This document shows, one piece after another, positions 1,491 through 58,736 of a DNA stretch of 64,000 bases. Origin of the DNA: Candidatus Woesebacteria bacterium. GTDB lineage: Bacteria; Patescibacteriota; Microgenomatia; UBA1400; MFAQ01. The notes below the pieces were generated by a model, which saw only the letters and a list, made by a program, of their open reading frames with translations, was not told the DNA's origin and did not search any database. Made by a program: the position numbers and the translations under genes. Position 1 is the stretch's first letter. Each line of letters begins with the position of its first letter. The stretch lies in contig DAOORK010000001.1 in the NCBI GenBank assembly GCA_035389185.1, positions 257,006-321,005 of the forward strand, written 5' to 3'.

Positions 1491-1494
1491 ATGT

Positions 1495-4437: not shown

Positions 4438-4440
4438 AAT

Positions 4441-5466: not shown

Positions 5467-5467
5467 T

Positions 5468-5836: not shown

Positions 5837-5863
5837 ATTTAGTCTATTTTACCAGTGTTAGAG

Positions 5864-7540: not shown

Positions 7541-7543
7541 TGA

Positions 7544-36569: not shown

Positions 36570-36593
36570 ATTAGTTATTCTACAATAGCAATG

Positions 36594-38288
36594 CTAATTA
36601 TTAACTTTGTAGATAGTAATAGCTGTTGTTTGATCCGGATAAAGAATTATATCGACAATCTTTCCGTTTTTTACAAATTCTGAATATTTATCAGAATATT
36701 TTAGCGGTAAAGCAATATATTTAGGATTATATTTACTTATAATCAAATTTAAATCTTTTTCTGTTTGGGGAAGAGAGAACAATAAGTTTTCAAGTGGCAA
36801 ATCGACTCTTGTGCTATTCACCAATTCTGAGGTATTTATCTTCTTTGGGTCACAAACTTCACTCGGTAAAGTTTGCCAGAAACAAAAATACCAAACTGGA
36901 TATTTGTCTTCCCAAATAATAAGCATTTCCCCGGGATTAGTAACCTGAAAATCGGAAATCTCTTTGAAACCATATTCCCAGTGCGAAGCAGAAAGGGCAG
37001 GATAAACATGAAAATAACTAAAAAGGAATTGGTAAATAGAAAAAAGACTAATTAGAGCTACAAACAATCCAAGGATTACTTTCATATATTTGTTTTTAAT
37101 CAAGTCAAGTGAAGATACTATCCCCTGGCCGCAAAAATAGGTGAGGAAAGGCATGAGAGTAATGATTCGAAGAAGATAGGTGGCACCATCCTTGGTAATG
37201 GCTCCGGGAATTGGAGAGATCAGAATCCATACAATAAAAATTGACTTTAATTTGAAGTCGGCTTTTTTGAAAAAGACAAACGCTCCTATAAGCATAAACG
37301 GAAGTAAAAAGGGAAAGAACTCCCCTACCATTCCGGTTGAATGACGAAGAATGTTGTCTCCTTTGAGAAATAAGAAATCTGGGGAAAAAAAGGATAAATA
37401 ATTTTTTGTAAATACCCGAATAATGGACAGAGGATAGTTGTAAAGTATTTTATTTGACACCACCTCAGAATTTGTATTTAAGGAAAAGATCGTTGGTTCT
37501 GACAGCCTTGATAATCCGCGATAGTAATTTGAGTCAGCAGTGACATTGACATCTTTCCAGATAGCCAGATCTAGCCCGCGAGATTTGGGGTTAAATAGTT
37601 GATATCTAGTAATACCTACGAAACCAAGAATAACTATGACGACGGTTAAAAATAACCACCATATTTTTCTTTGTGAACGATTTAACCCGTTTGTTATTAA
37701 AACAAAAACCAGTAAAGAGGCCATTGGAGCAATGACAACAAATGATGGGTAAAAAATCACCCCAACGACGAGTGGAATAAGAGAATAGAGATATTGAGTT
37801 GTTCTTTGTGCTTTAAGGAGAATCGTTAGATGTAAGCAACAAAGAAGAACGATTATGGGAATATGAGTATGACCTACACGGCTGATCATGAAACTCCAGG
37901 GCAAGACTGCGGAAAAGATACTACAAATAAAAGCTACCAGTAGATTTTTGCTTGGATTGATTTTTTGGGCAATTGCGTAAGTAAAGAAGAAAATGACTAG
38001 CGGAATAAATGAACCAAAGAGGGCCGAACCGAATCTTGTGCCAATCGGGGTGAGCCCAAAGAGCCAAGAGAAGTGAGTCATCCCGTAAAGTAATTTCGTG
38101 ATCAGACCCGGAATGTTCTGAACAGAAGTTGAAAAAATGATCTTAGAAATAAAACCGCCATATACCTCATCAGCATAAAGATTGGGAACATATTTATCTA
38201 AGCGATATAACCGTATAAAGAGAGAGGCTACAAATATCGCGGTTAACGATAAAGCAATTAATATTTTTCTGTTTTTTATCTGAGGCAC
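36594..38288 (-). CDS. GT-C superfamily membrane glycosyltransferase (PMT_2/ArnT-like)
   Basis: 564 aa; first loop FIRLYRLDKYVPNLYADEVYGG (ArnT/PMT_2-type DE motif), about 12 TM, C-terminal soluble domain. Confidence 0.5.
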   Translation of the reverse strand: MPQIKNRKILIALSLTAIFVASLFIRLYRLDKYVPNLYADEVYGGFISKIIFSTSVQNIPGLITKLLYGMTHFSWLFGLTPIGTRFGSALFGSFIPLVIFFFTYAIAQKINPSKNLLVAFICSIFSAVLPWSFMISRVGHTHIPIIVLLCCLHLTILLKAQRTTQYLYSLIPLVVGVIFYPSFVVIAPMASLLVFVLITNGLNRSQRKIWWLFLTVVIVILGFVGITRYQLFNPKSRGLDLAIWKDVNVTADSNYYRGLSRLSEPTIFSLNTNSEVVSNKILYNYPLSIIRVFTKNYLSFFSPDFLFLKGDNILRHSTGMVGEFFPFLLPFMLIGAFVFFKKADFKLKSIFIVWILISPIPGAITKDGATYLLRIITLMPFLTYFCGQGIVSSLDLIKNKYMKVILGLFVALISLFSIYQFLFSYFHVYPALSASHWEYGFKEISDFQVTNPGEMLIIWEDKYPVWYFCFWQTLPSEVCDPKKINTSELVNSTRVDLPLENLLFSLPQTEKDLNLIISKYNPKYIALPLKYSDKYSEFVKNGKIVDIILYPDQTTAITIYKVNN

Positions 38289-38294
38289 TGTATA

Positions 38295-39701
38295 TTATTG
38301 TACTTGGAAAAATTGTTTTGTACTTATCTCAATATTTTCTTTATCGTTGGGTCTTTCTCCTAAGTAGTCTTGGAAATAGACATTAAGGTTATTGTCTTTG
38401 TATAAAACCCTAAATAATTCAGAACCTGAGGTGATGTTGGAAATTTGTTTACTCGATCCCCATTCTTTTCCATAATCATCAGTGTCGTTTATAAATTCAA
38501 AATAACTTCCTTGTGGATATTGGGGATAATAGGAAGAAAAATAATTCACTATTTGCCGTGCCGTTTTTGAACGATTTACAGAATAATGCCTAGTATAAGT
38601 AAGATAGTTCATGGAGAGATTGAGAGCTATATAAAAGAGAACAAAGAGGGCTGAGAACAAAGATGTCTTCTTTGGAAAAACGCTGGCTATCCCAAGCGAA
38701 AAACCGACCAAGGGTAAGCCTAGCTCCAAAGCAAACTTGTGCTGGGGTAGAAAAATGACAGGTAAAAGAGGAATAACAAATAATAAGATTGAAACAACTT
38801 GGAGACGGTTTATATGTTTTATCTTTTTTACCAGAAGACCAATAAACGAAAAAACTGTGCCTCCAAGGAGAATAAAGATCGTTTGCCACCAATATGGGTA
38901 ATCCGTGAATAATCTGGGAATTGGCCTAAAACCACTACCAATGTAATCAACCAATAGTTCTGGTGCACCAAAGCTCCATAACACATACCAGGATAGGGTG
39001 TTTAAGGTTTTGGATGGAGAAAAATTCCAAACGTAACTATCCCCTTCGACGATTCCAAATACACTAAAGCGAAGATACAAATAGATGAGAGATATCATTA
39101 CAAAAGGTAAAAACTGCTTGATTTTTTTGAGTATTCCTTGATAGTTGAGGATAAGTATTAATACCGGCAAAACAATGGCTGTTTCTTTTGAAAGTAAAGC
39201 CAAAATAAAAAATATCAAGGACTTAACTTTTGACTTTTCAAAATTAAGTAAACAAAGGATAGAAAATATTACTAGAGAAATCTCTTGAAAAGCTGAGAGA
39301 AAATATAGTCTGGTAAAGTTTGAGACTGAGATTCCATAGATGAACGTAGCAATAATTGATTTTTTATCTTCTTTGAGAACAGATTTGGCAAAACGATAAA
39401 CAAGATAGAGAGAGAATCCAAAACAGAGTAAGACAAAGAGATAATATGGCCAGGCAGTTAGTCCGAAAAGCTTTTGAAAAGAAAAAAAGAATACTTGAGT
39501 GGGAAGAGGCCGATAAAAAGCGGCAGATTGGGCAGTGTGACTGAAAGAAAAGAAATTGAGAAATTGAGATAGAGAATCCACGTTTGAAATACGCAAGTGA
39601 AACCAGTCATCGCCCGAGAAATAATTTCCTAGTTGGAAAATATAAATAAATATCGGGAATAATATAAGAGAGATCGATTTAATAAGGTTAATTTTCATCA
39701 A
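38295..39701 (-). CDS. Polytopic membrane protein of unknown function (possible GT-C/polymerase-like)
   Basis: 468 aa; about 11 TM, low-GC, N/K/F/Y-rich; first loop NYFSGDDWFHLRISN. Confidence 0.3.
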   Translation of the reverse strand: MMKINLIKSISLILFPIFIYIFQLGNYFSGDDWFHLRISNVDSLSQFLNFFSFSHTAQSAAFYRPLPTQVFFFSFQKLFGLTAWPYYLFVLLCFGFSLYLVYRFAKSVLKEDKKSIIATFIYGISVSNFTRLYFLSAFQEISLVIFSILCLLNFEKSKVKSLIFFILALLSKETAIVLPVLILILNYQGILKKIKQFLPFVMISLIYLYLRFSVFGIVEGDSYVWNFSPSKTLNTLSWYVLWSFGAPELLVDYIGSGFRPIPRLFTDYPYWWQTIFILLGGTVFSFIGLLVKKIKHINRLQVVSILLFVIPLLPVIFLPQHKFALELGLPLVGFSLGIASVFPKKTSLFSALFVLFYIALNLSMNYLTYTRHYSVNRSKTARQIVNYFSSYYPQYPQGSYFEFINDTDDYGKEWGSSKQISNITSGSELFRVLYKDNNLNVYFQDYLGERPNDKENIEISTKQFFQVQ

Positions 39702-39717
39702 CAGTTAAATTGTATAC

Positions 39718-41550
39718 TCAAATGGATATTTTTCTATTTGGTAATAACTTTTCTGGATGATAGATTGAGGAACACACTATACCGGCGACAATAAGGAAAT
39801 AAAAGACATACAGTTCAATAAACGATAATGTCGAAACAACTGTACCCTGTTGAGCAGGATTAGTATACGGATCACCAATAATTTGGATTATTGTTGACAT
39901 CCATAAAAAATATCCACAAACGGCAGACAGAAGGAGTAACTTTGGTTTGATTATTTCAACGACATAGATAAGTAAAATCGGAATTGAAAAATGATAAAGA
40001 AGGAAATAGGCCCCTCCATAATCAAAAAGTTGATTATATCGATTGAGGTAAAGTAACCAAAAAATTATTAGCGGGGAAATACCAAGTATGAGCCATTTTG
40101 TGTGTCGTTTGTTTGTTTTTTTTATCAAAAAGACAATACTGAGAAAAATAATTGGGGATAAATTCGATATCAGTGAAAATCTTATGAATTGATATTTTAA
40201 TTCATATGGTGTCAAGGTATTTTGGGGATCCACGCTTTTCTTCAATGGGTTTGGATATACCAGCTGTAATAGGTTTATAGATTTTGCTGAAAAAAACGAC
40301 TGGGTTTCTTTTGGATATTCTTGAAAATATACACTTTCTCGCTGATTTTGATTTGATGTAGGAGGTGCGGCTGTTGAAAACAATAGCCACACGATAAACG
40401 AAACCAATAACGGTGTAAACCATAGGAGAGACCTAAAAAATGACCCGAATGAAGACCATTTTCTTAATGAATACACTATCAACAGAGAGGCAGACAGGAT
40501 AACAGTATAAGGATGAATTAGAAATGACACAACCATCAAAAAAGATGCCAATATCGAGTTATTTCTTTTGACTTTATCGAACAATAGTGGAATGGCAATA
40601 ATTATTGGGTAAGCTGCAAAATATTTATAAAAAATTTCAGTGTTAAAAGATAGTTGTGACAATTGGACATTACCAAGTATCATGACAATTAAAAGGCACG
40701 CTTTTACTCTAGAAGATACCTGTGTAGTGACTAAATAAAAGAGACCCAAATAATAAAGTAAGGCAAGAACTTCAAGAAAACGCGCATAAACAAAATGTGA
40801 TTCGCCAAATATACTAATTATTGAGGAAGTAATAATCGGTAGTAGTGGGGTTCTTTCTCCAATTAACAAGTCATCTAAACGATCAAAATAATTCGTCTGA
40901 TCTCCATATTTTTGATTGTAGTAATAACGAGCAATTCTCCAGGGGTTAATACTGTCGGCAAAATACCCTGTATAGCCCGTCACCGGCACCGGAGTTGATG
41001 AATCAAGAAGATATCCTGTCGATGGCACACCGTAGTACTGGTCTCTTCTGTAAATCGAAATATTAATTATTGAAAGTGTTAGCAAACCGATAACAAAATA
41101 TTTTAAGAATAGTTTTGAATCTAAAAATAGACGGCGATATATAAAATAAATTAGTCCCAGAAAAGAAGTGACAAGTGATAGCTGAAGGAACAGCTCGTTT
41201 TTTGACCATAAATACAAAAGACCTTGAGCAAACAATAGTGTTATCGATGCAATCGGAGCCAAAATTATCTTACTCTCCTTAGAAATGTCGATTTTATTAA
41301 TTTTTATTAAATAATCTACAAGGGAATATCCTGGAAAAAATAGAAGGAAAAGATAGAAAAAATAATATAACCAGTACATCAGAAAGGAGTGTCCACGAAA
41401 ATGTACTATCTCCAGTTGAACAAGAAACGTATTAAAGAGAGTGGATCCGGAAAACAAACTTAAAACAAGAAATGAGAAAGTGATTAATAGGACGACAACA
41501 CCGATCGTTATCAGAATCTTTTTAAACGCTGGGTGCCCTTTCTTTTTCAT
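39718..41550 (-). CDS. Polytopic membrane protein of unknown function (possible GT-C-like)
   Basis: 610 aa; about 14 TM; loop with DRLDDLLIGERTPLLP acidic motif. Confidence 0.3.
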   Translation of the reverse strand: MKKKGHPAFKKILITIGVVVLLITFSFLVLSLFSGSTLFNTFLVQLEIVHFRGHSFLMYWLYYFFYLFLLFFPGYSLVDYLIKINKIDISKESKIILAPIASITLLFAQGLLYLWSKNELFLQLSLVTSFLGLIYFIYRRLFLDSKLFLKYFVIGLLTLSIINISIYRRDQYYGVPSTGYLLDSSTPVPVTGYTGYFADSINPWRIARYYYNQKYGDQTNYFDRLDDLLIGERTPLLPIITSSIISIFGESHFVYARFLEVLALLYYLGLFYLVTTQVSSRVKACLLIVMILGNVQLSQLSFNTEIFYKYFAAYPIIIAIPLLFDKVKRNNSILASFLMVVSFLIHPYTVILSASLLIVYSLRKWSSFGSFFRSLLWFTPLLVSFIVWLLFSTAAPPTSNQNQRESVYFQEYPKETQSFFSAKSINLLQLVYPNPLKKSVDPQNTLTPYELKYQFIRFSLISNLSPIIFLSIVFLIKKTNKRHTKWLILGISPLIIFWLLYLNRYNQLFDYGGAYFLLYHFSIPILLIYVVEIIKPKLLLLSAVCGYFLWMSTIIQIIGDPYTNPAQQGTVVSTLSFIELYVFYFLIVAGIVCSSIYHPEKLLPNRKISI

Positions 41551-41636
41551 ATCAATTTATGATGATTATTAAGTATAATGGAAAACTGTATGAATATACG
41601 CACTGAGGATGTTTTTATAATAAACAAATATCTAGC

Positions 41637-42368
41637 ATGCAAATAGTAGAGAAAAAATTAGGCATTTCACCAGATTACCAATATCGTGCCATGACTCAGT
41701 CATCGTGGATAAAGAGAAACTGGCACCAAAATAAGTTTGATATTGTAAGACAAATTCATAAATTCAATAAGAATGAAGAGATATTGGATCTAGGAACCGG
41801 TTCTGGAAATTTCGAACTGATATTTGCCCGTTCCGTAAAACACATATACGGAGTTGACTATAACGATGACGCCTTATCATTTTTAGATAAATTGCTAACA
41901 AAAAAGAGAATTAAAAATGTAACCTTAGAGTGTTCCGACATGAGGAAATTATCATCAAAACTAAATCGGAAAAAGTACAATTTGATTGTTTCTATCGACA
42001 CAATTGAACATGTTTCAAAAAAAGATGGAGCCAAAATTGTTGAATGGTCAAAAAATCGATTAAAAAAGAATGGACGATTAATTATTATCACTCCAAATTA
42101 TGAAAGTGTGTGGGTATTTTTAGAGAAAATCCTCGATTTTCTATCATTCACACCCAAAATGGGACGCCACCAACACATGTCAAAATATTCAGTTAGTAGC
42201 ATGAGAAAAATGCTTTTGGAACATGGGTTTAGCGTTAACAAGGAAATAACTTTTAATTTGTTTTCGTTCATTCTTCCAAATAAAATTAACCAAAACCTGT
42301 TAAGAATTGAGGGGAAGTTGCACCATAATCGAGGGTGTTTAATGGCAGTTGAGGCTATAAACAAATAA
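41637..42368 (+). CDS. Class I SAM-dependent methyltransferase
   Basis: 243 aa; ILDLGTGSGNF motif I, IVSIDTIEHV. The only plus-strand gene within the low-GC block. Confidence 0.65.
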   Translation: MQIVEKKLGISPDYQYRAMTQSSWIKRNWHQNKFDIVRQIHKFNKNEEILDLGTGSGNFELIFARSVKHIYGVDYNDDALSFLDKLLTKKRIKNVTLECSDMRKLSSKLNRKKYNLIVSIDTIEHVSKKDGAKIVEWSKNRLKKNGRLIIITPNYESVWVFLEKILDFLSFTPKMGRHQHMSKYSVSSMRKMLLEHGFSVNKEITFNLFSFILPNKINQNLLRIEGKLHHNRGCLMAVEAINK

Positions 42369-42407
42369 CAATATTTTCTTGAACTTGGATGTAGACGGCT
42401 GTAATGT

Positions 42408-43421
42408 TTATTTACGTCTGCTACTTAAGTCCGAAATCAGCATTTCGACTGTCACTTTTTTATTTTTCCGGGAATTACTACTTAAAAAGTGTACTATCGT
42501 GGAAATAACAAATAATACGAATGACCAAATGGCGGCCTTTTCAGCATAGTTTTGCAGATTTAGCAGACTTAATAGTGATGTGATTGTCAATAACATAATT
42601 GAAAAAACTAATACTACCTTTCCATCAATCTTAAATTTCAATATTGTAAGAAACCACAAAAGAATAACCGGTAACGAATCTTTCATTAGGTAGTCTTTAA
42701 AGACAATTATTTCAAGAATACTTGTAAAAAAACATATACCCAGGAAAATAAGATAATTATTTCGTCCAAAATATACAAATATCGAATATAGCAAAAATGG
42801 TAAGAACGAGCTTAGAAATAGGGCAACTAAATAAGTGTCAGCAACAATATTCCATACTTTATGTATTAAAAACCAGGTAAGGTTATTGATGTTTTTATAG
42901 ATATATTCTTTTGTGAAAACATATTTAGTGGAGATTACCGGCTTTTCGCTATCAATTACAATTCCAGTTATTTCTTCTCCGTTTTGAGACTCAATTTCAA
43001 ATTGGTATGTTTTCCCTTGAGAGTCATTGATTACCGGAAACCCGAAAGGAAATAATTCGTGAGGCTGAAATTGATCAGTATTATATTTTGCACTGTAAAT
43101 CCAATTTTCTGCCCCTGATTCTCTTATTCTAAAAATAACAACGTCGATACTGTCTCTTCCCTTATTGTCGAATCTAACAAAAACTGTTCCGAGATTATTA
43201 TATTGAGAAACAAACTCTCCTTTAGCAATATTCCCTCTCAGCATCATCTTCCCCACTCTATCTATTTTTGACTGATTATTGTTTGTACTCAATAAATAAA
43301 AAATACCTCGGCCCCCTGTTTGGATAGAGTTTGTGAAACTGAAGACCCCATAAAGCACCAAAATGACAGGAAAAATAAAATACAAAACTAAATTACTCAT
43401 TTGGATTAGAATCTTATTCAT
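42408..43421 (-). CDS. Membrane protein of unknown function (N-terminal TM, about 150 aa extracytoplasmic beta-rich domain, 4 C-terminal TM)
   Basis: 337 aa ORF, 8-nt overlap with the upstream gene. Confidence 0.3.
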   Translation of the reverse strand: MNKILIQMSNLVLYFIFPVILVLYGVFSFTNSIQTGGRGIFYLLSTNNNQSKIDRVGKMMLRGNIAKGEFVSQYNNLGTVFVRFDNKGRDSIDVVIFRIRESGAENWIYSAKYNTDQFQPHELFPFGFPVINDSQGKTYQFEIESQNGEEITGIVIDSEKPVISTKYVFTKEYIYKNINNLTWFLIHKVWNIVADTYLVALFLSSFLPFLLYSIFVYFGRNNYLIFLGICFFTSILEIIVFKDYLMKDSLPVILLWFLTILKFKIDGKVVLVFSIMLLTITSLLSLLNLQNYAEKAAIWSFVLFVISTIVHFLSSNSRKNKKVTVEMLISDLSSRRK

Positions 43422-45684: not shown

Positions 45685-45701
45685 GAATGGCCTTCGGTTA
45701 A

Positions 45702-46685
45702 TCAGTTAACGATACAGGAAATGATATTTTTGATAATTTTTGTGTAGGACATAGAATCCTTTACTATTAATTCATTTAATTTATTATTCGGATTGATACA
45801 TTTTAATGTATAGCAGGATAGTAGCGTCCCTGATGAACTAGAGTCGTCAGGATATAAAACAATCTTATTACATCTTGATGACGATATTAAATCGCACAAA
45901 CCACTTCTTATTGAAACAAAGTGACCAGCTAAGTCCAAAAATGGAACAGTGCTTGTTAGTGGGATGCTAAGGTTAATCGCTCCTTCATGTTTAAAATTGA
46001 TTCCGTTAATCACTACAGAGTAACCTAAGGAAATAAGGGCGTCAACAAGTTTATGCCATATTTTGTTGTTGATTATTTTGATTGAGTTCGCTTCTGGAGC
46101 AATCAAGACTGTCTTATGGTGTTTTAATTTGTGTTGATAAAATAGTTTTTCTGATGTTTTTATAGCGATATTTGGGATAAACGGCTCAATTATTGGCACG
46201 TCATTTGATAAAGACAGCATATTTTTATATACATCATAAATATTAGAATTTATACCCATACTTTGGAGATCATTATTGTTTATAAAATATGGGTGCGCGA
46301 TAGCAACCTTGTTAATTGCTAAGGTTGAATAGTTTTTTGAAAATTTTTTAAGCAAAAAAAGGAATGCGTTACCTGGCATGTCGGCAACAATAATTTTCTT
46401 TTTTATATTTGGAAATAATTTTGGGATCTCTTTATGAGTTGGCTTAACGACAATTACAACTGACTTAATATTATTTTCATCCAAAAAATACTTAAGATGC
46501 GCACATAGATTATAAGTATCTCCAATTCCATAAGCGCAGATAAGACCGATTTGATTATTTTTTAATTTAATTTTATTTAATATTTTTTTCCACCTGAAAT
46601 AGCCGAATAATAATGACCTCGTTTGATTAATTAGTTTAGGAATTGACATATTTCTTGGCTTGTATGTTTTACTTTCGGATTTCAA
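45702..46685 (-). CDS. GT9-like (heptosyltransferase-fold) glycosyltransferase
   Basis: 327 aa; N-terminal ICAYGIGDTYNLCAHLKYF (cf. GT9 RLSALGDVLhtlPal) and C-terminal DLAGHFVSIRSGLCDL (cf. NDSGpmHLAAAL); very low GC. Confidence 0.35.
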   Translation of the reverse strand: MKSESKTYKPRNMSIPKLINQTRSLLFGYFRWKKILNKIKLKNNQIGLICAYGIGDTYNLCAHLKYFLDENNIKSVVIVVKPTHKEIPKLFPNIKKKIIVADMPGNAFLFLLKKFSKNYSTLAINKVAIAHPYFINNNDLQSMGINSNIYDVYKNMLSLSNDVPIIEPFIPNIAIKTSEKLFYQHKLKHHKTVLIAPEANSIKIINNKIWHKLVDALISLGYSVVINGINFKHEGAINLSIPLTSTVPFLDLAGHFVSIRSGLCDLISSSRCNKIVLYPDDSSSSGTLLSCYTLKCINPNNKLNELIVKDSMSYTKIIKNIISCIVN

Positions 46686-47409
46686 TTACCAAATCTCTAT
46701 AGAAAAAATTTCCAATTCTTGGAATACCACCAAGCCGTGAAAACAATATGACAAAAATATTACTACTAAGGTTTTTCAATATTACATTGTACTTCCTAAC
46801 TCCTACTCTTTTTAGTAAATTGCTCATATACTCTTTTGACCACTTATAGTAATGCTCGTCATGGAATATTCGACCAGATCCAATTAATCTAAAAATAATG
46901 TCTCCAAACCACTCAGAATTATCTGTAACTATTTCAATTTTCCCTTTGGAAATTTTCACAATATTCTGAATGAATTCTGCAGGGTTAATCATGTGTTCAA
47001 TACTGTAATTACTTAATACAATATCAATACTTTCTTTTCTAAATGGTAGGAATGCTGCGTTTGCAAGAATAAAATTTTCCGGTATTCTCTTGGGTATATA
47101 GCAGTCAAGATTGATATTCCCCCTTGGGTTTTCACCACATCCAACATCAAGAATCAATTTTCGTTTTTCTTTGTATCTTACAAACGGTTTCCCCGACATC
47201 TTTATTAAAATTTTGCCCTTTAGTCCACGAAATCCTCTTTTCCAATTTTCTTCAATCAAAAAATTTGGGACGTTATGACCTTTAATATTTATGATCGGGT
47301 ATTTACGCCCGCAAGTATTACACACAAAGATATCTGGCTTGTCGAATTTTAAACAATCATCTTGACATAAAGGACAGGCAAGCACTTTATAGTAATCCAT
47401 ATTTTTCAA
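46669..47409 (-). CDS. SAM-dependent methyltransferase with N-terminal Trm112-like zinc ribbon
   Basis: 246 aa; LACPLCQDDC...CNTCGRKYPIINIK zinc-ribbon followed by LDVGCGENP motif I. Confidence 0.6.
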   Translation of the reverse strand: MKNMDYYKVLACPLCQDDCLKFDKPDIFVCNTCGRKYPIINIKGHNVPNFLIEENWKRGFRGLKGKILIKMSGKPFVRYKEKRKLILDVGCGENPRGNINLDCYIPKRIPENFILANAAFLPFRKESIDIVLSNYSIEHMINPAEFIQNIVKISKGKIEIVTDNSEWFGDIIFRLIGSGRIFHDEHYYKWSKEYMSNLLKRVGVRKYNVILKNLSSNIFVILFSRLGGIPRIGNFFYRDLVIEIRK

Positions 47410-48538
47410 TTAAATTTAATTCTGTTTTTGCAATATCTTCCCAGGAATATTTCTTTATAAAATTTGCTCCTTGTCTCCCGATTCTAACTCGATCCCTTTT
47501 CGAATTTAAATATTCAATTACTGTAGCGGAAAATTTCTTTGTATTACCTAAGGGTATCGAAATGTTTTTACCTTCAAATACTTCCTTGTATACCGGTAAA
47601 TCCCACGATATTACTGGTAGTCCACAAGCCATTGCTTCGGCAATAACAATCCCAAACCCTTCTTCGTGCGATGGAAATACAAATATTTTTGCTGATTTTA
47701 ATGTTGGATATATATCTTCATTACGTAAATATCCAAAAAACTTAATGTTCTTTTTAATGTTGTATTTTTCTATTGTATCTTTAAGTTTGTTGATATTATT
47801 GATGTCTCCTCCGCCGATAATTGCAAGTTTTGCATTGGGAATCGTATCAATAACAGTTTTCCAAATCTCCGGAAGGTCGAATACACCTTTTGAAGGATTA
47901 ATTCTTCCCAAATATATCGCGTCCCATACCTGATTTTTTATCTTCTTGACTTCTTGAATCCTTTCGTAATCAATGCCGACAGGATTAATAAATATTTTTT
48001 GTGAATCAATACCGGAATCACATAATGCGACTCCAGTTGCCTTATTAATATTTATTACGATGTTGGCCTTTCTAATTAGCATTAGACTTATTCTCTGCGA
48101 CAATTGTGCCATCAAATTTATGATTTTATTACCTGGCCTAACACGCCAATCTTGATAAATATGAAAAACGCACTGAACCCATTTTATCTTCGGGCGTAAT
48201 AGTTTTAGTACAAAGGCAGGAATAACGTCCGGAAAGAAATCTGAGTTTGAATAAACAACATCGATATTTTTATTTGGGAGATGAAACAAAACGTATGCTG
48301 TACGCAGTAAATAACTAATACCCGCACCAAATCTATCGAAAATTGTTGGGGTAATTATATATTTAAACTTAATTTTGTATGTTTCATCGAGGTTCCTTCC
48401 ATCTTTATTTGTGATAATTACTCCATCAAAATTATTTTGAATTCTGCTAAATATCTCGACGAATCTTGTTTCTCCACCACTGGTTTTTGTGTTTTTTCCC
48501 CAGAAACTATTTTGAAAGATTATTACACTTTTTTTCAT
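47387..48538 (-). CDS. Glycosyltransferase family 4
   Basis: 383 aa; EGFGIVIAEAMACGLPVIS GT4 motif. Confidence 0.65.
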   Translation of the reverse strand: MKKSVIIFQNSFWGKNTKTSGGETRFVEIFSRIQNNFDGVIITNKDGRNLDETYKIKFKYIITPTIFDRFGAGISYLLRTAYVLFHLPNKNIDVVYSNSDFFPDVIPAFVLKLLRPKIKWVQCVFHIYQDWRVRPGNKIINLMAQLSQRISLMLIRKANIVININKATGVALCDSGIDSQKIFINPVGIDYERIQEVKKIKNQVWDAIYLGRINPSKGVFDLPEIWKTVIDTIPNAKLAIIGGGDINNINKLKDTIEKYNIKKNIKFFGYLRNEDIYPTLKSAKIFVFPSHEEGFGIVIAEAMACGLPVISWDLPVYKEVFEGKNISIPLGNTKKFSATVIEYLNSKRDRVRIGRQGANFIKKYSWEDIAKTELNLIEKYGLL

Positions 48539-48544
48539 TTTTTC

Positions 48545-50167
48545 TTAAGAAATTAGAATCGAAACTTTTAATAAGAATCTGTTTAGCAATTCTGGTTTTA
48601 GTATTATCACAACACCATGATGTCTATTCCTTACCATTTTTTTTATGATCTCATAGGTGCACTTATTATTTGTGTTTACAATGACTGATAACCTTTGTCT
48701 TTCATAAACCGGATAATCGTTGATATCGTTTCCAAAATGAATCGTTTCGGAATCTGATATTTTTTTATTGTTATCTTTTAAGACCTTTTTGACACCTAAA
48801 TATTTATTTGTTTTAGATGAAACGATATTCAAGTATCCTTCATTAATTTCGCAAAATAGCCCAATTTCTAAAAATTGTTTTCTGTAGTTTTTTAGGTTTT
48901 GCCGATTATGTTTTAACACCAATTTATTTATTCCTCCTAATTGAATTATTTTTAAATACGACTCCAACTTATCGCAGAAATATGACTGTGGATATTTGTC
49001 TTTAAAATGTCTTATCTGATTCCTGTCATTGGAATAGAAAACATAATTGAGGATATTTATTCTTGTCTTATTGTCAATTTTTATTTCACTTGAAGGGTAA
49101 TGTGCTATTACAATTACTTTATCCCCAATATTTCTTAGCAAACTTATAATTTGAACAAATGACTTTTTCTCAACAGGAATGTTGTGAATGATATTTTCGA
49201 CTTTAAGATTACTAATATTAGTATTTTTATCCAAGATTATTGCACCTTCGTTTAATACTGAAGGAAGAGTGAATAGGTCAGATACTTTATTCACCTCTTT
49301 GTCACATCTTTTTTTAATTTTTTGTATAAAACTACTAGGTCCTGCCCCGGTGACTACGATTGTGTCTGAATTTGTTTTTCTGATTGATCTGATACCTTTT
49401 AGTGGAAATTTATTATTGTTAATTATCGTTCCATCGAGATCAAAACTTAAAAGCTTAATATTTTGGAATAGATTTTTCTTTTGATTCAGAGTTCTAGTAA
49501 TTCCTTCAATTGAATCAACAAACAAGGTTTCCAATCCGCAATAATTTCCCTGTTTCTCGAGACAAGATGCCCCAATAGCACCGCCCGGATGATTTCTTAA
49601 AAAGTCTTTAAGCCTTATAGGAAATAGCTCAATGATTGACATAGCAAGTGATTGTAAATACATTAAAAAGGCTATCGTTGAATTGTTCGGGACAAGATTC
49701 CACGGATCTCCCTCATTTGGAATATTTAACACTACTTTCTGATCGACAAGATTTGCAGATCCCGATTCTGATGAACAGGTTAATAACCAAATTTCACAGT
49801 TACGTTTTTTTAGCTGATTGAGGAGCAAAATTGTTTCAGATGTATTTCCGCTTTTCGAGATGACTATGACCAGATCACCATCATGAACTGCTCCTAAATC
49901 ACCATGAATTGCACTGTTTGTATGCAAAAAATTTGCCCTTAATCCGAATGATGTTAACGAGCCAACAAATTTTTCACAAACAGGTACGTTTTTCCCTAAG
50001 CCAGATACAATTACCGATTTGTTGCTCTTTAGAGCATTAATACATTGTTTCAGTAATATATTTGAGTCTTTTTTCTTAAGCTGATTTTGACAATAGGACA
50101 AAGAATTAATTTGTTGAGAAAAATGCCAGTCAATTATTCCGCTTAATTTATTCTTAAGAGGTTTCAT
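48545..50167 (-). CDS. Bifunctional fusion: KdsD/KpsF-like arabinose-5-phosphate-isomerase SIS domain (no CBS pair) fused to a Cof-type (HAD-IIB) sugar-phosphate phosphatase
   Basis: 540 aa. Residues about 50-215 align with the KdsD SIS domain (SGLGKN, HGDLG, VISKSGNTSE, HPGGAIG). Residues about 230-540 carry HAD motifs I (LLSFDLDGTII) and IV (HFGNDINDYPV) with an intervening cap, like Cof/YidA. Confidence 0.65.
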   Translation of the reverse strand: MKPLKNKLSGIIDWHFSQQINSLSYCQNQLKKKDSNILLKQCINALKSNKSVIVSGLGKNVPVCEKFVGSLTSFGLRANFLHTNSAIHGDLGAVHDGDLVIVISKSGNTSETILLLNQLKKRNCEIWLLTCSSESGSANLVDQKVVLNIPNEGDPWNLVPNNSTIAFLMYLQSLAMSIIELFPIRLKDFLRNHPGGAIGASCLEKQGNYCGLETLFVDSIEGITRTLNQKKNLFQNIKLLSFDLDGTIINNNKFPLKGIRSIRKTNSDTIVVTGAGPSSFIQKIKKRCDKEVNKVSDLFTLPSVLNEGAIILDKNTNISNLKVENIIHNIPVEKKSFVQIISLLRNIGDKVIVIAHYPSSEIKIDNKTRINILNYVFYSNDRNQIRHFKDKYPQSYFCDKLESYLKIIQLGGINKLVLKHNRQNLKNYRKQFLEIGLFCEINEGYLNIVSSKTNKYLGVKKVLKDNNKKISDSETIHFGNDINDYPVYERQRLSVIVNTNNKCTYEIIKKMVRNRHHGVVIILKPELLNRFLLKVSILIS

Positions 50168-51684
50168 AAATCATCTTCTAAAATATCATTAATCAGATAT
50201 ACCCCTTTATAAAAGGCGCCGCATATTGAATCATAATTATCCCACGTGTATGAAGTAAGTGATAACCAAATTATTGCGTGTATTATTTTGATTTTTCTTA
50301 TATCTCTGTTAATTAGTTTAAAAAATTGTTTTTCTAGTTTATGCCAACCACTTGATGATATTTTTATAGAAATATTATTATCATCAATTGTTAACCTAAA
50401 ATTTTTTCTGTTGAACTGGTCGTAGTCTCCGATAATTGAATAATATAGTTTTGCCCAATCATAGTCTTCATCTCCAAATAATATTTCTTTCCCGAAGTAA
50501 CCTCTTGGATCAATAAAAACAATTCTTGAATCTGATGAAAAGATTATATTTGAGAACGTTATATCTCCATGAATAACCTTGTAATCGTTCGAATAGTAAG
50601 GTTTTATTAGATCTTCGACAATTTTGAAGTTTTTGTACACATTGATGCATTTTTTCCCGTTTATCATAATATAGTCCTGATCAATCAAAGGAATTAAACT
50701 GGCGATCTTTGTCATCCTTTCCTTAGTCTTTGAAAGAAATGCTATGTCATTATTTTGGTGATAATCTTGCTTTTTGGTTGGTTTAATTACATGTATTGTC
50801 CTTATTTGTTCAATAATTTTTTTCAAAATATTATTTTTTTCTCTTAAACTCATTCGCATCTCATAGAGAGGTTTCCCATTAATAAATTTCATTGTTAATG
50901 GGTCGTAGGATAGAATCCGAGGAAGAAAATCAATTTTGTATGATTCCAGCGATTGATACCATTTTTTTTCAAGTAATGCCAAATCCATCCCTTGTTTATT
51001 TACTGGAATTTTTTTAAGTATGCCCTTTTCTACTTCAATACGATTGAAAGCTCGGGAAACTAAACTAGCGTTACAAAATTTTGAGTATTTATGTAGCGTT
51101 CCGATTTCTTTTATACCTTCTGGATAAAACTGAACCATTGCAACTCTGTCATTTCTGAGAAATTTGCAAAACTCCGTTTCGTTAGGAATATTTGATAACG
51201 CTTTTTTGTCTTTAAAAACGAACAATCCGATTATTCCTCTTCTTTTACTCGGTTGCTCAACAGGTAAACCTCTTTGGAAACTCCATCGACATTTAAACTG
51301 ATTGGAAAGCCCAATGTAGTTCGTAGACGAAGATAGTTTATTTATAAAATTGGCATTTTCCAAATACAGATCACACCAAATTAGCAAAAAGGGGGTTTTT
51401 GATGGTATTTTCCTCAGACACTGTTTTATTCCACCGCCATCAAATTTGTAATGAGTTTTTACTATTTCATAATTATCTGTTGGAGAATAGATTGAAAGAT
51501 ATTTTTTAAGTAAGTCACTCTTATAATCGGAAATTATCAGAATTTTTGCTTTAGGAAATAATTTTATTGTCCTAATAATTAAGGGTTCGTTATTGATGGA
51601 AATAAGTGCTTTGGGTTTATTTGCTGTCAAATAGCCCATTCTATTACCCCTTCCCCCCGCTTGAATTATGACGTATTTAACCAT
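50164..51684 (-). CDS. Bifunctional fusion: N-terminal sugar/phospho-alcohol nucleotidyltransferase (LicC/RmlA-like) plus C-terminal APH/choline-kinase-fold kinase (LicA/AmgK-like)
   Basis: 506 aa. N-terminal VIIQAGGRGNRMGYLTANKPKALISINNEPLI (G-G-x-G-x-R plus KPKAL, very similar to the LicC N-terminus). C-terminal VIHGDITFSNIIF...VFIDPRGYFG...DEDYDWAKL (catalytic HGD..N loop and IDxE/DW motif of APH/ChoK-like kinases). Confidence 0.65.
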   Translation of the reverse strand: MVKYVIIQAGGRGNRMGYLTANKPKALISINNEPLIIRTIKLFPKAKILIISDYKSDLLKKYLSIYSPTDNYEIVKTHYKFDGGGIKQCLRKIPSKTPFLLIWCDLYLENANFINKLSSSTNYIGLSNQFKCRWSFQRGLPVEQPSKRRGIIGLFVFKDKKALSNIPNETEFCKFLRNDRVAMVQFYPEGIKEIGTLHKYSKFCNASLVSRAFNRIEVEKGILKKIPVNKQGMDLALLEKKWYQSLESYKIDFLPRILSYDPLTMKFINGKPLYEMRMSLREKNNILKKIIEQIRTIHVIKPTKKQDYHQNNDIAFLSKTKERMTKIASLIPLIDQDYIMINGKKCINVYKNFKIVEDLIKPYYSNDYKVIHGDITFSNIIFSSDSRIVFIDPRGYFGKEILFGDEDYDWAKLYYSIIGDYDQFNRKNFRLTIDDNNISIKISSSGWHKLEKQFFKLINRDIRKIKIIHAIIWLSLTSYTWDNYDSICGAFYKGVYLINDILEDDL

Positions 51685-52369
51685 TCTTTAATTTTAGAAA
51701 TAAGGTTGACCAACCTTTATTTTTGTTAAAGTCTTTGTCGTTTTTGCTCATAAAATATCCTTCTAGCATCGGTTTTGATCTAAATACCCATTTAGAAATA
51801 TATAAATTTAACATACTAAATTGTTCCCACCAGCTACCTCTTGTTATTATCTTTTTAATTATAAAATTTGTTTCGTTTACAATCTTTTTAAGCTTCTTTG
51901 AAGAATAATGGCGGTGGCCTACTAACCACCAGGCTGGGTCGAGAACACAAGACCAAAATGACTGATTTGGTGTTGAAATATATAAAACTCCTCCTTTTTT
52001 TAGGACTCTTGAAGCTTCTTTGAAAAAAATGTTTTCTGTCCCCTTTGGTATGTGCTCGAGTACTTCCCAACACACTACAGTATCGAATGATTTCATTGTA
52101 AAGGGAATTTTGATGGCGCTTCCAATTTTAAAACCGATTTCTCTGCATTTTATCGTTTTTGCTGTTTTTAAATCGTTTTTGCTAATCTCCATACCAATAA
52201 TTTTTTTTACACCTTGATTTTTTGCCCACAATTCGAACCATCCGAAGCCGCATCCAACATTAAGTACTTTTTTATTTTTGATATCTTTCTTTTCAACAAA
52301 CTTATTCACGGTAAATAACGTTCGACCAGACAACTTCATGTATGGTGTTTGATTAAGCAAGTTTTTCAT
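51677..52369 (-). CDS. Class I SAM-dependent methyltransferase
   Basis: 230 aa; VLNVGCGFGWF motif I, VVCWEVLEHI, GGVLYISTPN. Confidence 0.6.
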   Translation of the reverse strand: MKNLLNQTPYMKLSGRTLFTVNKFVEKKDIKNKKVLNVGCGFGWFELWAKNQGVKKIIGMEISKNDLKTAKTIKCREIGFKIGSAIKIPFTMKSFDTVVCWEVLEHIPKGTENIFFKEASRVLKKGGVLYISTPNQSFWSCVLDPAWWLVGHRHYSSKKLKKIVNETNFIIKKIITRGSWWEQFSMLNLYISKWVFRSKPMLEGYFMSKNDKDFNKNKGWSTLFLKLKNG

Positions 52370-53217
52370 TTATTTTGAAAAATATAGGAAAGCCAGGTAA
52401 TAAATCTAATGCTATACATACTTATTGCTAGTATCGGATGAGCAACAAGTTTTTTCCATTTATCGTTCTCGACGTATACGACTACTGACCTATACCAAAG
52501 ACCTAACTGTTTCGTGACATCCTTATCATCCTTTCCCCATTTGTTCACATAGCTATCAAAGGTTTTAACATATTTTTTCTTTTTTCTTAAAAAGGTTTTT
52601 AAATCGAGTAACTCTTCGTGGTGATATATGCCTTTTTGGGTGATTGAAATTTTATTTGTTTGTTTTTTAATTGTTTTTGTTAAATCCCAGTCGTCAGCAC
52701 CAAACATAATATTTTTTTCGTCATAACCACCAATTTTTTTAAACAAAGTTCGGTTTACTACTCTTATGGCATCAACAGGGGTTTTATTATAAAAGCTTCG
52801 TTCAAAGTTTCTAACTTTTCCAAAATATCCGTTTCCCTTGATGGTTTCAGGAATATAAAGGGCGTCAAACCTGTTCATTTTTTGGGATATTTCCTGAAAG
52901 AGTCCTTTATCGAAAGTCATGTCGGCATCGGGAAAGAAAATTATTTCTCCTGTGGATTTTTTTAAACCCTGATTTACTTGGGCGCCACGAAAATTTTTCG
53001 TTTTATTGCCGATTACAACATCGAACACATTTTTTGTATATTTGAGAGCAATCTTTTTTGTGTCGTCATTGGAATGATTATCTACGACAATAATTTCTAT
53101 ATTTTTTCGAGGAAATTTTTGCTCTTTAATTGACTGTAGGCAATTCCCAATATGATTTTCTTCGTTTTTTGTAGCTACAATTGCGGTAATCTTCATAAGA
53201 GTTATCTTGAATGCCAA
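52366..53217 (-). CDS. Glycosyltransferase family 2
   Basis: 283 aa; ITAIVATKNEENHI...IIVVDNHSNDDT...FFPDADM. Confidence 0.65.
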   Translation of the reverse strand: MAFKITLMKITAIVATKNEENHIGNCLQSIKEQKFPRKNIEIIVVDNHSNDDTKKIALKYTKNVFDVVIGNKTKNFRGAQVNQGLKKSTGEIIFFPDADMTFDKGLFQEISQKMNRFDALYIPETIKGNGYFGKVRNFERSFYNKTPVDAIRVVNRTLFKKIGGYDEKNIMFGADDWDLTKTIKKQTNKISITQKGIYHHEELLDLKTFLRKKKKYVKTFDSYVNKWGKDDKDVTKQLGLWYRSVVVYVENDKWKKLVAHPILAISMYSIRFITWLSYIFQNK

Positions 53218-54179
53218 TTCCAGGCGTCCTTGATGATATCATCGATATTATATTTACTTTTCCATTTTAAAATTTTGTTAGCCTTCGATGGATCGGCCAC
53301 CAGTATTGGTGGATCACCGACCCTTTGCTTCTCTTTGATTACAGCGAATTTTGATTGATATTTTTTTACTTTATCAACGATCTCCTTAACTGATGTTCCG
53401 ATTCCAGTCCCAATATTAAAGAAATTTGTGCCTGTTTTTTTGTTCATGTACTGAAGAGCTTTCAGATGAGCATCCGCTAAATCGAGGACGTGAACATAAT
53501 CACGAATACAAGTACCGTCGGGAGTAGAATAATTATTTCCAAAGATACTAATTGATTTTCTTTTCTTTTGGGCAGCACTTATTACCAATGGAATAAGATG
53601 AGTTTCAGGATTGTGTGATTCTCCAATTTCAAAACCTGCCCCAGCTGCATTAAAATATCTCAGTCTAACGGAATTCACTTTGTATATTTGCCAATACCAT
53701 TCGAGGATTTTCTCGAACATCAGTTTACTTTCCCCATACGGATTGATGGGAGAATTTGGCTGATCTTCTGTTATAGGAGTAGTCTTTGGTGTGCCATATA
53801 CAGCGCAACTTGAAGAAAATACAATTTTTTTACATCCGTTTGCTACCATTGCTTCGAGTAGATTAACACCTCCTTGAATATTATTTTCAAAATACTTTCC
53901 AGGATTTTCCATTGATTCGCCGACAAAAGCATATGCTGCGAAATGAATTACCGAATCAATCTTGTGTTCCTTGAATATTTTAGCGACTGTTTTTTTGTTT
54001 AACAAATCTCCTTTTACAAAAACTACTCCTTTGGGTAAATATGACTTATGTCCATAAATCAAATTATCAACTACAACAATATTTTTTGGGTCAATTCCCT
54101 GATTAACAAAGTAATGAACTGTGTGAGAACCTATGTAGCCAGCTCCTCCTGTTATTAATATTTTTTTATCGTTATTCAT
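53202..54179 (-). CDS. UDP-hexose 4-epimerase (GalE-family SDR), second copy
   Basis: 325 aa; ILITGGAGYIGSH, YGESK, LRYFNAAGA; paralogue of 29021..30004 but in the low-GC block. Confidence 0.75.
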   Translation of the reverse strand: MNNDKKILITGGAGYIGSHTVHYFVNQGIDPKNIVVVDNLIYGHKSYLPKGVVFVKGDLLNKKTVAKIFKEHKIDSVIHFAAYAFVGESMENPGKYFENNIQGGVNLLEAMVANGCKKIVFSSSCAVYGTPKTTPITEDQPNSPINPYGESKLMFEKILEWYWQIYKVNSVRLRYFNAAGAGFEIGESHNPETHLIPLVISAAQKKRKSISIFGNNYSTPDGTCIRDYVHVLDLADAHLKALQYMNKKTGTNFFNIGTGIGTSVKEIVDKVKKYQSKFAVIKEKQRVGDPPILVADPSKANKILKWKSKYNIDDIIKDAWNWHSR

Positions 54180-54192
54180 TGTTTATCTTTTA

Positions 54193-58731: not shown

Positions 58732-58736
58732 GGAGG

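Follow-up and report, generated by a model that had tools for sequence, protein, structure and literature searches.

A probable replaceable AT-rich cassette at the centre of a surface-glycan locus in a Collierbacteria-like Patescibacterium

The window analysed here, the whole of a 64,000-nucleotide stretch of contig DAOORK010000001.1, derives from an organism that, on sequence grounds, is a Collierbacteria-like Patescibacterium: among GTDB contigs (one genome per species), those with the nearest gmd loci (80–96% identical) bear the titles Candidatus Collierbacteria or Microgenomates group. A dcw cluster at 219–9,172 encodes FtsA, MurG, FtsW, MraY, diacylglycerol kinase, a penicillin-binding protein, RsmH and MraZ, and from ~12.6 kb to past 64 kb the window is taken up by a glycan locus of >50 kb, nearly all of it on the minus strand. 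The latter contains an initiating Bac_transf transferase, ManC, many glycosyltransferases of families GT4 and GT2, a Wzy_C-type protein, Wzx, gmd, an fcl-like gene and several PMT_2-type transferases of the GT-C class; wzx, the Wzy_C-like gene and the initiating transferase all belong to its conserved part. Within this locus, between gmd and the gene for a B12-binding radical-SAM protein (SAM, S-adenosylmethionine), which is likewise part of the locus, lies the subject of this report: an AT-rich block of 14 genes, or island, that is probably a replaceable cassette. Its junctions are gene-tight, with 24 nt on the gmd side and 13 nt on the radical-SAM side. The genes of the island and its two anchors are as follows (aa, amino acids; GC, guanine + cytosine content; TM, transmembrane).

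35544..36569, minus strand: gmd (GDP-mannose 4,6-dehydratase), the left anchor, outside the island; Pfam GDP_Man_Dehyd, E 1e-95
36594..38288, minus strand: 564-aa polytopic membrane protein of GT-C type, a PMT_2 paralogue; GC 0.358
38295..39701, minus strand: 468-aa polytopic membrane protein; ~9 TM segments, DD pair at residue 31 after TM1
39718..41550, minus strand: 610-aa membrane protein, a near-orphan; ~15 TM segments
41637..42368, plus strand: SAM-dependent methyltransferase; Pfam Methyltransf_23/31/25/11, E down to 4e-19
42408..43421, minus strand: 337-aa membrane protein; one N-terminal TM segment, a soluble domain and four C-terminal TM segments
43414..45684, minus strand: 756-aa GT-C-fold glycosyltransferase; AlphaFold2 (AF2) model with pLDDT 91.9 and pTM 0.92
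45702..46685, minus strand: 327-aa soluble protein; zero TM segments
46669..47409, minus strand: 246-aa protein, Cys4 ribbon plus partial SAM-methyltransferase; Methyltransf_23, E 5e-8; Methyltransf_11, E 2e-6
47387..48538, minus strand: GT4 glycosyltransferase, PimA/PimB-like GT-B; Glycos_transf_1, E 2e-34
48545..50167, minus strand: SIS–HAD fusion, 540 aa; KpsF/GutQ-type sugar-phosphate isomerase plus Cof-type HAD-IIB phosphatase
50164..51684, minus strand: nucleotidyltransferase–kinase fusion, 506 aa, AfhE-like; N-terminal sugar-1-phosphate nucleotidyltransferase, C-terminal APH-type kinase
51677..52369, minus strand: SAM-dependent methyltransferase; Methyltransf_11, E 2e-18
52366..53217, minus strand: GT2 glycosyltransferase; Glycos_transf_2, E 3e-25
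53202..54179, minus strand: GalE (UDP-glucose 4-epimerase), a cassette-specific paralogue; TIGR01179, 408.6 bits (cut-off 262.3)
54193..55650, minus strand: B12-binding radical-SAM protein, the right anchor, outside the island; Radical_SAM and B12-binding domains

In 1-kb windows over the full 64 kb, GC is 0.29–0.37 across 37–54 kb and 0.36–0.44 elsewhere. A two-changepoint maximum-likelihood search, run blind to the coordinates of a preliminary description of this DNA, places the low-GC segment at 36,561–54,443, with a GC of 0.328 inside and 0.406 outside; the log-likelihood ratio of the fit is 168, whereas 100 shuffles of 500-bp blocks yielded no value above 44. The preliminary description had proposed an AT-rich block at ~36.6–54.2 kb that starts right after gmd, a proposal that both the windows and the blind fit bear out: the left edge is exact and the right edge correct to within ~250 bp, the offset arising because the terminal 250 bp of the radical-SAM gene are somewhat AT-rich too. 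GC thus shows a sharp step at both edges, as does GC at third codon positions (GC3). All 14 island genes have a GC of 0.30–0.36, and the remaining 46 genes 0.36–0.50. The shift extends to every codon position, with values for island and other genes, respectively, of 0.373 and 0.481 for GC1, 0.302 and 0.350 for GC2, and 0.281 and 0.365 for GC at synonymous third positions (GC3s; Mann–Whitney p = 3e-8); ~56% of the GC deficit is attributable to amino-acid usage and ~44% to synonymous codon choice. The island proteins are correspondingly enriched in N, C, I, Y, S, F and K, and depleted in A, E, T, P and G.

The dinucleotide signature, which is normalized for GC, also sets the island apart: its distance from its own flanks (delta* × 1000) is 55–61, whereas flank segments differ among themselves by 18–37. 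It lies nearer to the variable regions of the related loci L097, L006 and L095 (23–38; loci of relatives carry the prefix L throughout). Conservation correlates positively with GC among the flank genes (Spearman 0.59, p = 0.005), but not with GC3; the mildly AT-rich glycan genes within 31786–33359 and 25718–28990, namely a GT2 (0.362), a methyltransferase (0.370) and two proteins of 434 aa (0.366) and 420 aa (0.378), are the least conserved genes of the flanks. The possibility that the low GC of the island is merely the tail of this trend was rejected as a full explanation, as GC3 is trendless and the island genes fall 4–6 GC points below the line described by the flank genes.

Synteny of the flanks is shared by ~15 related genomes: one flank has gmd-fcl-wzx and the other GT2-GT2-radical-SAM. 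The longer order gmd-fcl-wzx-GT2-(methyltransferase)-GT2-GT4-epimerase is retained on the gmd side in L005, L006, L008, L013, L095, L096 and L098, and the syntenic genes are 45–96% identical to those of the relatives at the amino-acid level; Gmd itself is 78–97% identical in Collierbacteria-like relatives. Nucleotide homology to L005, L006, L096, L008, L097, L109 and L094 stops at 36,569–36,609, no more than 40 bp from where gmd starts. On the opposite side, the order PMT_2 (n copies)-GT2-GT4-unknown-GT2-GT2-radical-SAM is kept in L086 and L089, the radical-SAM gene following the GT2 pair in Collierbacteria-like loci, and nucleotide homology to L085–L088 stops at 54,188, only 5 bp beyond the radical-SAM stop codon. 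Both breakpoints coincide with the edges of the island. The radical-SAM protein is 66–85% identical among the 120 clusters listed, and the source-named matches are all from Patescibacteria, the named cluster members including Moranbacteria, Falkowbacteria and Parcubacteria-group bacteria. Such high conservation within a glycan locus is notable in itself.

Between the anchors, the relatives carry other genes. Those beyond the radical-SAM gene in L085, L088 and L089 are unrelated to those of the window: L085 has a GT2, DAO, a GFO-type oxidoreductase, a split transketolase, an epimerase, TylF and others, and L089 has AsnB, a GT4 and an AftD-like GT-C protein; L091 has an aminotransferase and an acetyltransferase. 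Similarly, the first neighbour of gmd is a 564-type gene in the window, L007 and L095, a 468-type gene in L008, a 337-type gene in L097 and a methyltransferase in L005 and L109. In all, different glycosyltransferase, methyltransferase, sugar-modifying or GT-C genes occupy this position in L005, L006/L096, L008, L085, L088, L089, L094, L097 and L109, so the notion that the same block might be present in all relatives, which would have undermined the preliminary description, does not hold. In the nearest relative, L094 (Gmd 97% identical at the amino-acid level, 85% at the nucleotide level), an extra gene for a 485-aa polytopic membrane protein (L094 369–1826) is inserted between the 564-like gene and gmd, which shows that single genes are gained or lost at the junction.

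The interval is AT-rich in most of these relatives, whatever genes it holds. Of the 13 anchored loci, 11 have a variable side of lower bulk GC (for example, 0.314 versus 0.393 in its flank for L006, 0.321 versus 0.420 for L097 and 0.345 versus 0.430 for L089), and GC1, GC2 and GC3 are lower in each of the ten loci tested gene by gene, significantly so for GC3 in nine. Thus, although the low GC that the preliminary description emphasized is real, it is not a mark of the origin of this particular cassette.

The order of the cassette is found again in two genomes that are far more distant. L174 (GCA_000398045.1) and a JGI contig share 11 gene types with the island, in an unchanged relative order that two additional genes interrupt; this order runs GT4, nucleotidyltransferase–kinase, SIS/HAD, 327-, 756- and 337-like, inverted methyltransferase, 610-, 468- and 564-like, and in L174 the cassette is followed by gmd-wzx-GT2. 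Identity to L174 is 31–53% for the cassette and 44–60% for the flank genes, and the L174 cassette has a GC of 0.26–0.33 versus 0.35–0.41 in its own flank. Since the order is shared with distant genomes at 31–53% identity and the L174 copy is itself AT-rich, the cassette type appears to be old and its low GC persistent. Distribution is nonetheless patchy: much closer relatives than L174 lack the cassette or have parts of it only, and the L174 copy is the only one to which the 756-aa protein of the window can be aligned in full (32% over 759 aa), unlike those of the closer L095 and L097. Outside the species, the best identities are 50% for the nucleotidyltransferase–kinase, 47% for the 610-aa protein, 35–37% for the 756-aa protein and 63–70% for the 564- and 468-aa proteins. 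Judged on these sequence comparisons, the island is unlikely to be a recent import.

An integrative island, an integrative and conjugative element, or a prophage was also considered and rejected. Integrase and transposase Pfam domains are absent from all 14 island genes, a tRNA scan found none, an Rfam scan returned zero matches, and a search for flanking repeats recovered only short AT-rich repeats of the kind expected by chance.

A candidate sugar-nucleotide pathway is encoded by the two fusion genes. The SIS–HAD fusion matches TIGR00393 (kpsF; E 1e-32) and the Cof subfamily (E 1e-7); the score for the former falls short of the full-length cut-off, since the fusion has no CBS domains, a feature it shares with 5uqi and 3etn; these two, together with 3fxa and 2xhz, are its matches in the PDB. 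The SIS domain is matched by gp55 of phage RB69 (E 2e-20), and the HAD motif DLDGT is intact, as read from the translation. The 506-aa fusion matches NTP_transf_3 (E 5e-10) and, weakly, APH, and has MurU/GlmU-type NCBIfam hits, its nucleotidyltransferase half being MurU/LicC-like; the motifs GGxGxR and HGD..N, also read from the translation, are intact. Gp52 of RB69 matches its residues 217–500 (E 7e-25), the match of gp53 to the N-terminal domain being weak, and the fusion matches 355 phage records, 326 of which cover at least 80% of the protein. This family of ~500-aa proteins is large (2,790 of 8,000 scored candidates at E ≤ 1e-5, with 40–50% identity), and its source-named members include Paceibacterota, Akkermansiaceae and Pelagibacterales. 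The order nucleotidyltransferase–kinase then SIS is kept in L090, L091, L174 and the JGI contig; in L090 and L091, which are from candidate phyla, the SIS gene that follows the fusion stands alone.

For the phages RB69, DLP3 and HY126, a route from ribulose 5-phosphate (Ru5P) via arabinofuranose 5-phosphate (Araf5P), Araf1,5P2 and Araf1P to UDP-Araf has been proposed and partly shown (PMC13326640; PMC6024577), and for HY126 the kinase/pyrophosphorylase activities of AfhE and the phosphatase activity of AfhF have been reported (PMC13326640). Because both fusions are homologous to genes of this pathway, the cassette probably supplies a nucleoside diphosphate (NDP)-D-arabinofuranose-type donor. 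The resemblance to the phage systems (RB69 gp55, gp53:52 and gp51; DLP3 gp81-83; HY126 AfhE and AfhF) extends to a KpsF-type isomerase without CBS domains, a bifunctional nucleotidyltransferase–kinase, a putative HAD phosphatase and the same PDB neighbours (5uqi, 3etn, 2xhz and 1jyk). Here, however, the genes lie in a cellular glycan locus and not in a DNA-modification module, the isomerase and the phosphatase are fused, and the phosphatase is of the Cof-type HAD-IIB, whereas that of the phages is a small GmhB-like HAD. The phage arabinose pathway may have a wide cellular counterpart; a limited literature search for a cellular UDP-D-Araf pathway returned only the phage paper.

Two other assignments were set aside. 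A role of the SIS gene in the synthesis of 3-deoxy-D-manno-octulosonate was disfavoured, as KdsA and KdsB are absent. Activation of phosphocholine by the 506-aa fusion, in the manner of LicA/LicC, was likewise disfavoured, as the conserved pairing with a KpsF-type isomerase fits arabinose better, although it falls short of proof.

The remaining distinctive content of the island is its set of membrane proteins. The GT-C class is recognized by its fold and by an acidic residue in the first extracytoplasmic loop; the 756-aa protein is assigned to it by its model, and the 564-aa protein by its paralogy to PMT_2 proteins (phmmer E 9e-28 to the flank protein at 61735–63378) and by a DE pair at residue 40, after the first of its ~9 TM segments. 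The 468-aa protein is probably a GT-C-like transferase as well, to judge only by a motif characteristic of the class, an acidic pair that follows TM1. Homologues of the 564-aa protein are encoded next to gmd in L007 (63%), L095 (52%) and L174 (41%), and those of the 468-aa protein are found in L007 (70%), L095 (62%), L174 (52%) and L008 (47%). Only three homologues of the 610-aa protein (38–47%) were found among 5.8 billion proteins, and two of these are encoded within cassettes of the same order; its AF2 model, built from a four-sequence alignment, was unusable (pLDDT 51.5) and was left out of the fold search. The 337-aa gene overlaps the 756-aa gene by 8 nt, and homologues of this pair are adjacent in L088, L089, L095 and L174; both are also present in L097, albeit ~2.2 kb apart.

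In a Foldseek search of the PDB, the model of the 756-aa protein matched the mycobacterial arabinofuranosyltransferase AftD best (6w98; E 1.8e-10, TMq 0.55), followed by STT3/PglB, DPY19, AftA and ArnT. With AftD, PglB/STT3, ArnT and PMT, it shares the GT-C fold and a conserved Asp in the first external loop; it is, however, only ~10% identical to AftD and much shorter (756 versus ~1,400 aa), and no genes of the decaprenyl-phospho-arabinose pathway were seen in the window. Its family comprises 1645 representatives at E ≤ 1e-3, in which D46 and W47 are nearly invariant, and is without a Pfam model: the protein gave no hit even at E ≤ 10, and ten homologues that were scanned gave none either. 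Among the models left unmatched is YfhO (PF09586), and the earlier ‘YfhO-like’ label has to give way to the GT-C fold. The 327-, 337-, 468- and 610-aa proteins likewise returned nothing usable from Pfam at E ≤ 10, from NCBIfam or from phmmer searches of the PDB, and the ‘GT9-like’ label that had been attached to the 327-aa protein finds zero support in these sequence searches.

Of the other enzymes, the methyltransferase at 41637..42368 is the sole plus-strand gene of the island, and a 49% homologue has the same inverted position in L174, where the 327-aa protein also has a homologue (34%) in the same position. The N-terminal Cys4 ribbon of the 246-aa protein reads CPLC...CNTC in the translation. 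The best PDB matches of the GT4 are PimB' (3oka), 6kih and PimA (2gej), whereas those of the GT2 include DPMS (5mlz; E 3e-5). GalE is only 46–48% identical to the conserved flank epimerase (29021–30004) of the window and of the relatives, and the two paralogues differ in GC3 (0.282 in the cassette, 0.399 in the flank). The gene inventory given in the preliminary description was mostly right, with three corrections: the ‘YfhO-like’ and ‘GT9-like’ labels discussed above and the number of methyltransferase-type genes, which is three and not two.

We propose, with a probability that we put at roughly 0.6, that the block is a replaceable central cassette of the >50-kb surface-glycan locus of this Collierbacteria-like Patescibacterium, arabinose-type function included. 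Homologous recombination in the conserved flanks would exchange cassettes, either entire or module by module, and the AT-richness would be a long-standing property of the cassette pool or of the chromosomal interval, and not the trace of a recent import. The two fusion enzymes would convert ribulose 5-phosphate to arabinose 5-phosphate, and this in turn via arabinofuranose 1,5-bisphosphate and arabinofuranose 1-phosphate to NDP-D-arabinofuranose; at the cytoplasmic face, the GT4, the GT2 and the 327-aa protein would then use NDP-Araf and GalE-derived donors, with the three methyltransferases decorating the sugars. Outside the membrane, the GT-C-type enzymes (the 564-aa protein, the 756-aa protein with its 337-aa partner, probably the 468-aa protein and perhaps the 610-aa protein) would add residues from lipid-linked donors. 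The outcome would be a surface glycan variant peculiar to the lineage.

A number of observations weigh against this proposal. The loci of the relatives were fetched with flanks of ≤10 kb, and none of them spans both anchors. Moreover, variation among strains was not observed: all seven contigs whose Gmd and radical-SAM proteins are identical carry this cassette, and the only variation shown is that between species (Gmd ≤97% identical), although with so small a sample this is a weak negative. Little or no drop in GC is seen in L009 (0.372 versus 0.376) and L010 (0.411 versus 0.441). As the identities of cassette and flanks to L174 are similar, the shared type could be vertical, with replacements in other lineages only. 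Given that the 564 and 468 genes (36.6–39.7 kb) are common to some close relatives and that their identities track those of the flanks (L007 > L095 > L174), the left 3 kb may, in this sub-lineage, be part of the stable locus; the part without a syntenic counterpart in close relatives is then ~39.7–54.2 kb. With regard to function, the HAD domain is unmatched by RB69 gp51 in phmmer, Cof-type IIB being another subfamily than that of the phage phosphatase, and the match of the 756-aa protein to AftD reflects a fold common to all GT-C enzymes, and not specificity for arabinose; we infer the identity of the sugar and of the nucleotide, as well as a link to the GT-C enzymes. The earlier designation as a serotype-variable cassette is thus apt in so far as a variable position lies in a conserved glycan locus, but it overreaches as to strains, the variation being between species. 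Horizontal exchange is supported indirectly, by the patchy distribution, by one incongruent gene (that of the 756-aa protein) and by the distinct dinucleotide signature, but no donor or recent transfer was seen.

Three other explanations have to be set beside the replaceable cassette. That the step is an artefact, either of membrane-protein composition or of a chimera introduced in assembly or binning, might be suspected from the fact that, of the 14 gene products, five are polytopic membrane proteins and that the source is a metagenome-assembled genome (MAG). However, the soluble enzymes are shifted as much as the membrane proteins, with disjoint GC ranges for the eight of the island (0.306–0.352) and the 21 of the flanks (0.362–0.440), and membrane proteins of the island (0.337) are lower than those of the flanks (0.395); GC3 at four-fold degenerate sites falls from 0.42 to 0.31. 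Amino-acid composition of membrane proteins, a cause which the preliminary description had itself allowed for, is excluded by these shifts in soluble enzymes and at synonymous sites. Nor is the block a chimera, as both junctions recur in independently assembled contigs, with lengths that include 66–905 kb, from an NCBI MAG (GCA_029561095.1; 538-kb contig), a JGI metagenome and Logan; we regard an artefact as refuted for practical purposes. The second explanation, that the whole 17.6-kb block was acquired recently from a low-GC donor whose signature is unameliorated, would account for the sharpness of the GC and GC3 steps at both edges, for a dinucleotide signature unlike that of the flanks, for the position of the island genes below a flank trend in which GC3 takes no part, and for the absence of the block from most close relatives. 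It is nevertheless improbable: no close homologue was found outside the species (best identities 35–70%, depending on the gene), the interval is AT-rich in most relatives irrespective of its genes, and the L174 cassette is AT-rich at 31–53% identity, a divergence at which a donor signature should have decayed. Additionally, the shift in GC1 (−0.11) exceeds that in GC3 (−0.08), unlike a simple difference in whole-genome GC, and mobility genes and att-like repeats are absent.

The third explanation dispenses with exchange altogether: in a vertically inherited interval, fast evolution under relaxed constraint, combined with AT-biased mutation or, for want of recombination partners, with less GC-biased gene conversion, would let genes diverge past recognition and drift AT-rich in place. 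This would be in keeping with the rise of GC with conservation in the flanks, with the amino-acid-driven share of more than half of the GC deficit, with the low GC at this position across most of the clade, and with the similar divergence of cassette and flanks from L174; the O-chain clusters of Pelagibacterales present the same combination of low GC and mostly co-diverging types (PMC11898729). However, divergence alone is ruled out as the source because gene content differs in kind (DAO, GFO and transketolase in L085; AsnB in L089; aminotransferase and acetyltransferase in L091). Furthermore, the nearest relative, L094, has an extra gene at the junction, the type of the 756-aa protein is incongruent with the flank phylogeny, and GC3 is independent of conservation in the flanks, with the island genes lying below the trend. 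Descent without exchange is, in our view, rather unlikely.

The replaceable cassette finds its closest parallel in the replacement flexible genomic islands of Pelagibacterales and Alteromonas (Rodriguez-Valera, Lopez-Perez and co-workers; PMC11898729, PMC4033161, PMC4898812), which share with it a fixed position between conserved genes, alternative gene sets of similar function, a GC several points below that of the genome and the absence of integrase and tRNA; there, too, the divergence of a shared type often equals that of the host genomes, and homologous recombination in the flanks has been proposed. In the O-chain clusters of Pelagibacterales, for example, GC is 23.8% versus 29.4% for the genome, and most shared types have diverged like their genomes (PMC11898729). 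Those islands are, however, defined by differences between strains within a species, whereas variation here is between species only; the host here is a Patescibacterium, and the locus, unlike those islands, is unusually rich in GT-C-type membrane transferases. A limited literature search for hypervariable glycan islands in Patescibacteria did not turn up a specific paper. The product would not be an O-chain, as bacteria of the candidate phyla radiation are not known to have an outer membrane with lipopolysaccharide.

A second parallel is provided by the O-antigen and capsule clusters of enterobacteria, between galF and gnd, and the pneumococcal cps locus, between dexB and aliA. In each case, nucleotide-sugar, glycosyltransferase and processing genes (wzx, wzy) form low-GC cassettes that are exchanged by recombination in the flanks, and Wzx, a Wzy_C-type protein and Bac_transf are also encoded in the locus described here. 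Unlike in those clusters, wzx, the Wzy_C-like gene and the initiating transferase are conserved here, and variability is confined to a decorating or extension module.

The cell envelope of candidate-phyla-radiation bacteria is little known, and episymbionts need both surface contact with their hosts and escape from phages. If our reading is correct, the Collierbacteria lineage shares the design of free-living bacteria with O-antigens or capsules, namely a conserved locus with a swappable AT-rich middle, which suggests that the surface glycan is under diversifying selection. The gmd gene and the highly conserved radical-SAM gene would serve as practical anchors when cassette types are catalogued from metagenomes. 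That low GC has persisted in deeply diverged copies of one cassette type indicates that the AT-richness of an island need not mean recent import, a point that bears on compositional detectors of horizontal gene transfer. Finally, the probable NDP-D-arabinofuranose module would tie a recently described phage pathway to cellular glycan synthesis. A broader and tentative extension, against which we would put the odds somewhat, is that Collierbacteria-like bacteria, and many others to judge by the wide spread of the nucleotidyltransferase–kinase fusion, may make NDP-D-arabinofuranose from ribulose 5-phosphate by a route hitherto known only from the hypermodification of phage DNA and, with AftD-like GT-C enzymes, display D-Araf on their surface; in this clade, the module would be part of an ancient and persistently AT-rich pool of interchangeable cassettes. 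If so, this would constitute a second bacterial route to D-Araf glycans, nucleotide-sugar-based and independent of decaprenyl-phospho-arabinose, and the cellular module would be a likely source of the phage genes.

Several further observations concern the related loci. Two of the closest gmd loci are Third Party Annotation (TPA) assemblies labelled Pseudomonadales, with the same gene order. More generally, L005, L008, L012 and L045 are TPA_asm MAG records titled ‘uncultured Pseudomonadales’, ‘Gammaproteobacteria’ or ‘Klebsiella’; since L005 and L008 are of the Collierbacteria type in gene order and sequence, at least these two labels look wrong. In the MAG LaPlata_bin-1578, contigs L007 and L013 each carry gmd (91%), one contig ending inside fcl and the other beginning 183 bp ahead of gmd; breaks around gmd are the pattern that strain-level cassette heterogeneity in a population would produce. 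In L174 (1209–4228), the nucleotidyltransferase–kinase and SIS/HAD genes are each called as two open reading frames (ORFs; 355 + 153 and 119 + 335 aa), which may be genuinely split genes or may result from frameshift errors of the assembly, and a HicA toxin gene lies between the cassette and gmd. The 420-aa flank gene of the window (27728–28990) has a homologue inside the L174 cassette (60% identity) and has therefore moved within the locus.

Within the window itself, promoter-like sites in 36–55 kb are at chance level (80 versus 82.9 expected) and hence uninformative, and a terminator scan of the same region found none at either junction. The longest versions of the ORFs at 57454–58944 and 58737–59951 (both minus strand) overlap by 208 nt, and their start codons are uncertain because the gene calls in the MAG are shorter (425 and 355 aa); both encode membrane proteins without a family, the second having a marginal PMT_2 match (E 0.1). 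Between the dcw cluster and the glycan locus, together with a RecO-like gene, lies the following gene.

10747–12651, minus strand: DUF4012 protein, 634 aa

Proteins with DUF4012 are uncharacterized. The high-GC outlier of the window is mraZ (8741–9172, minus strand), with a GC of 0.498 and a GC3 of 0.556, compared with a mean GC3 of ~0.38 for the flanks.

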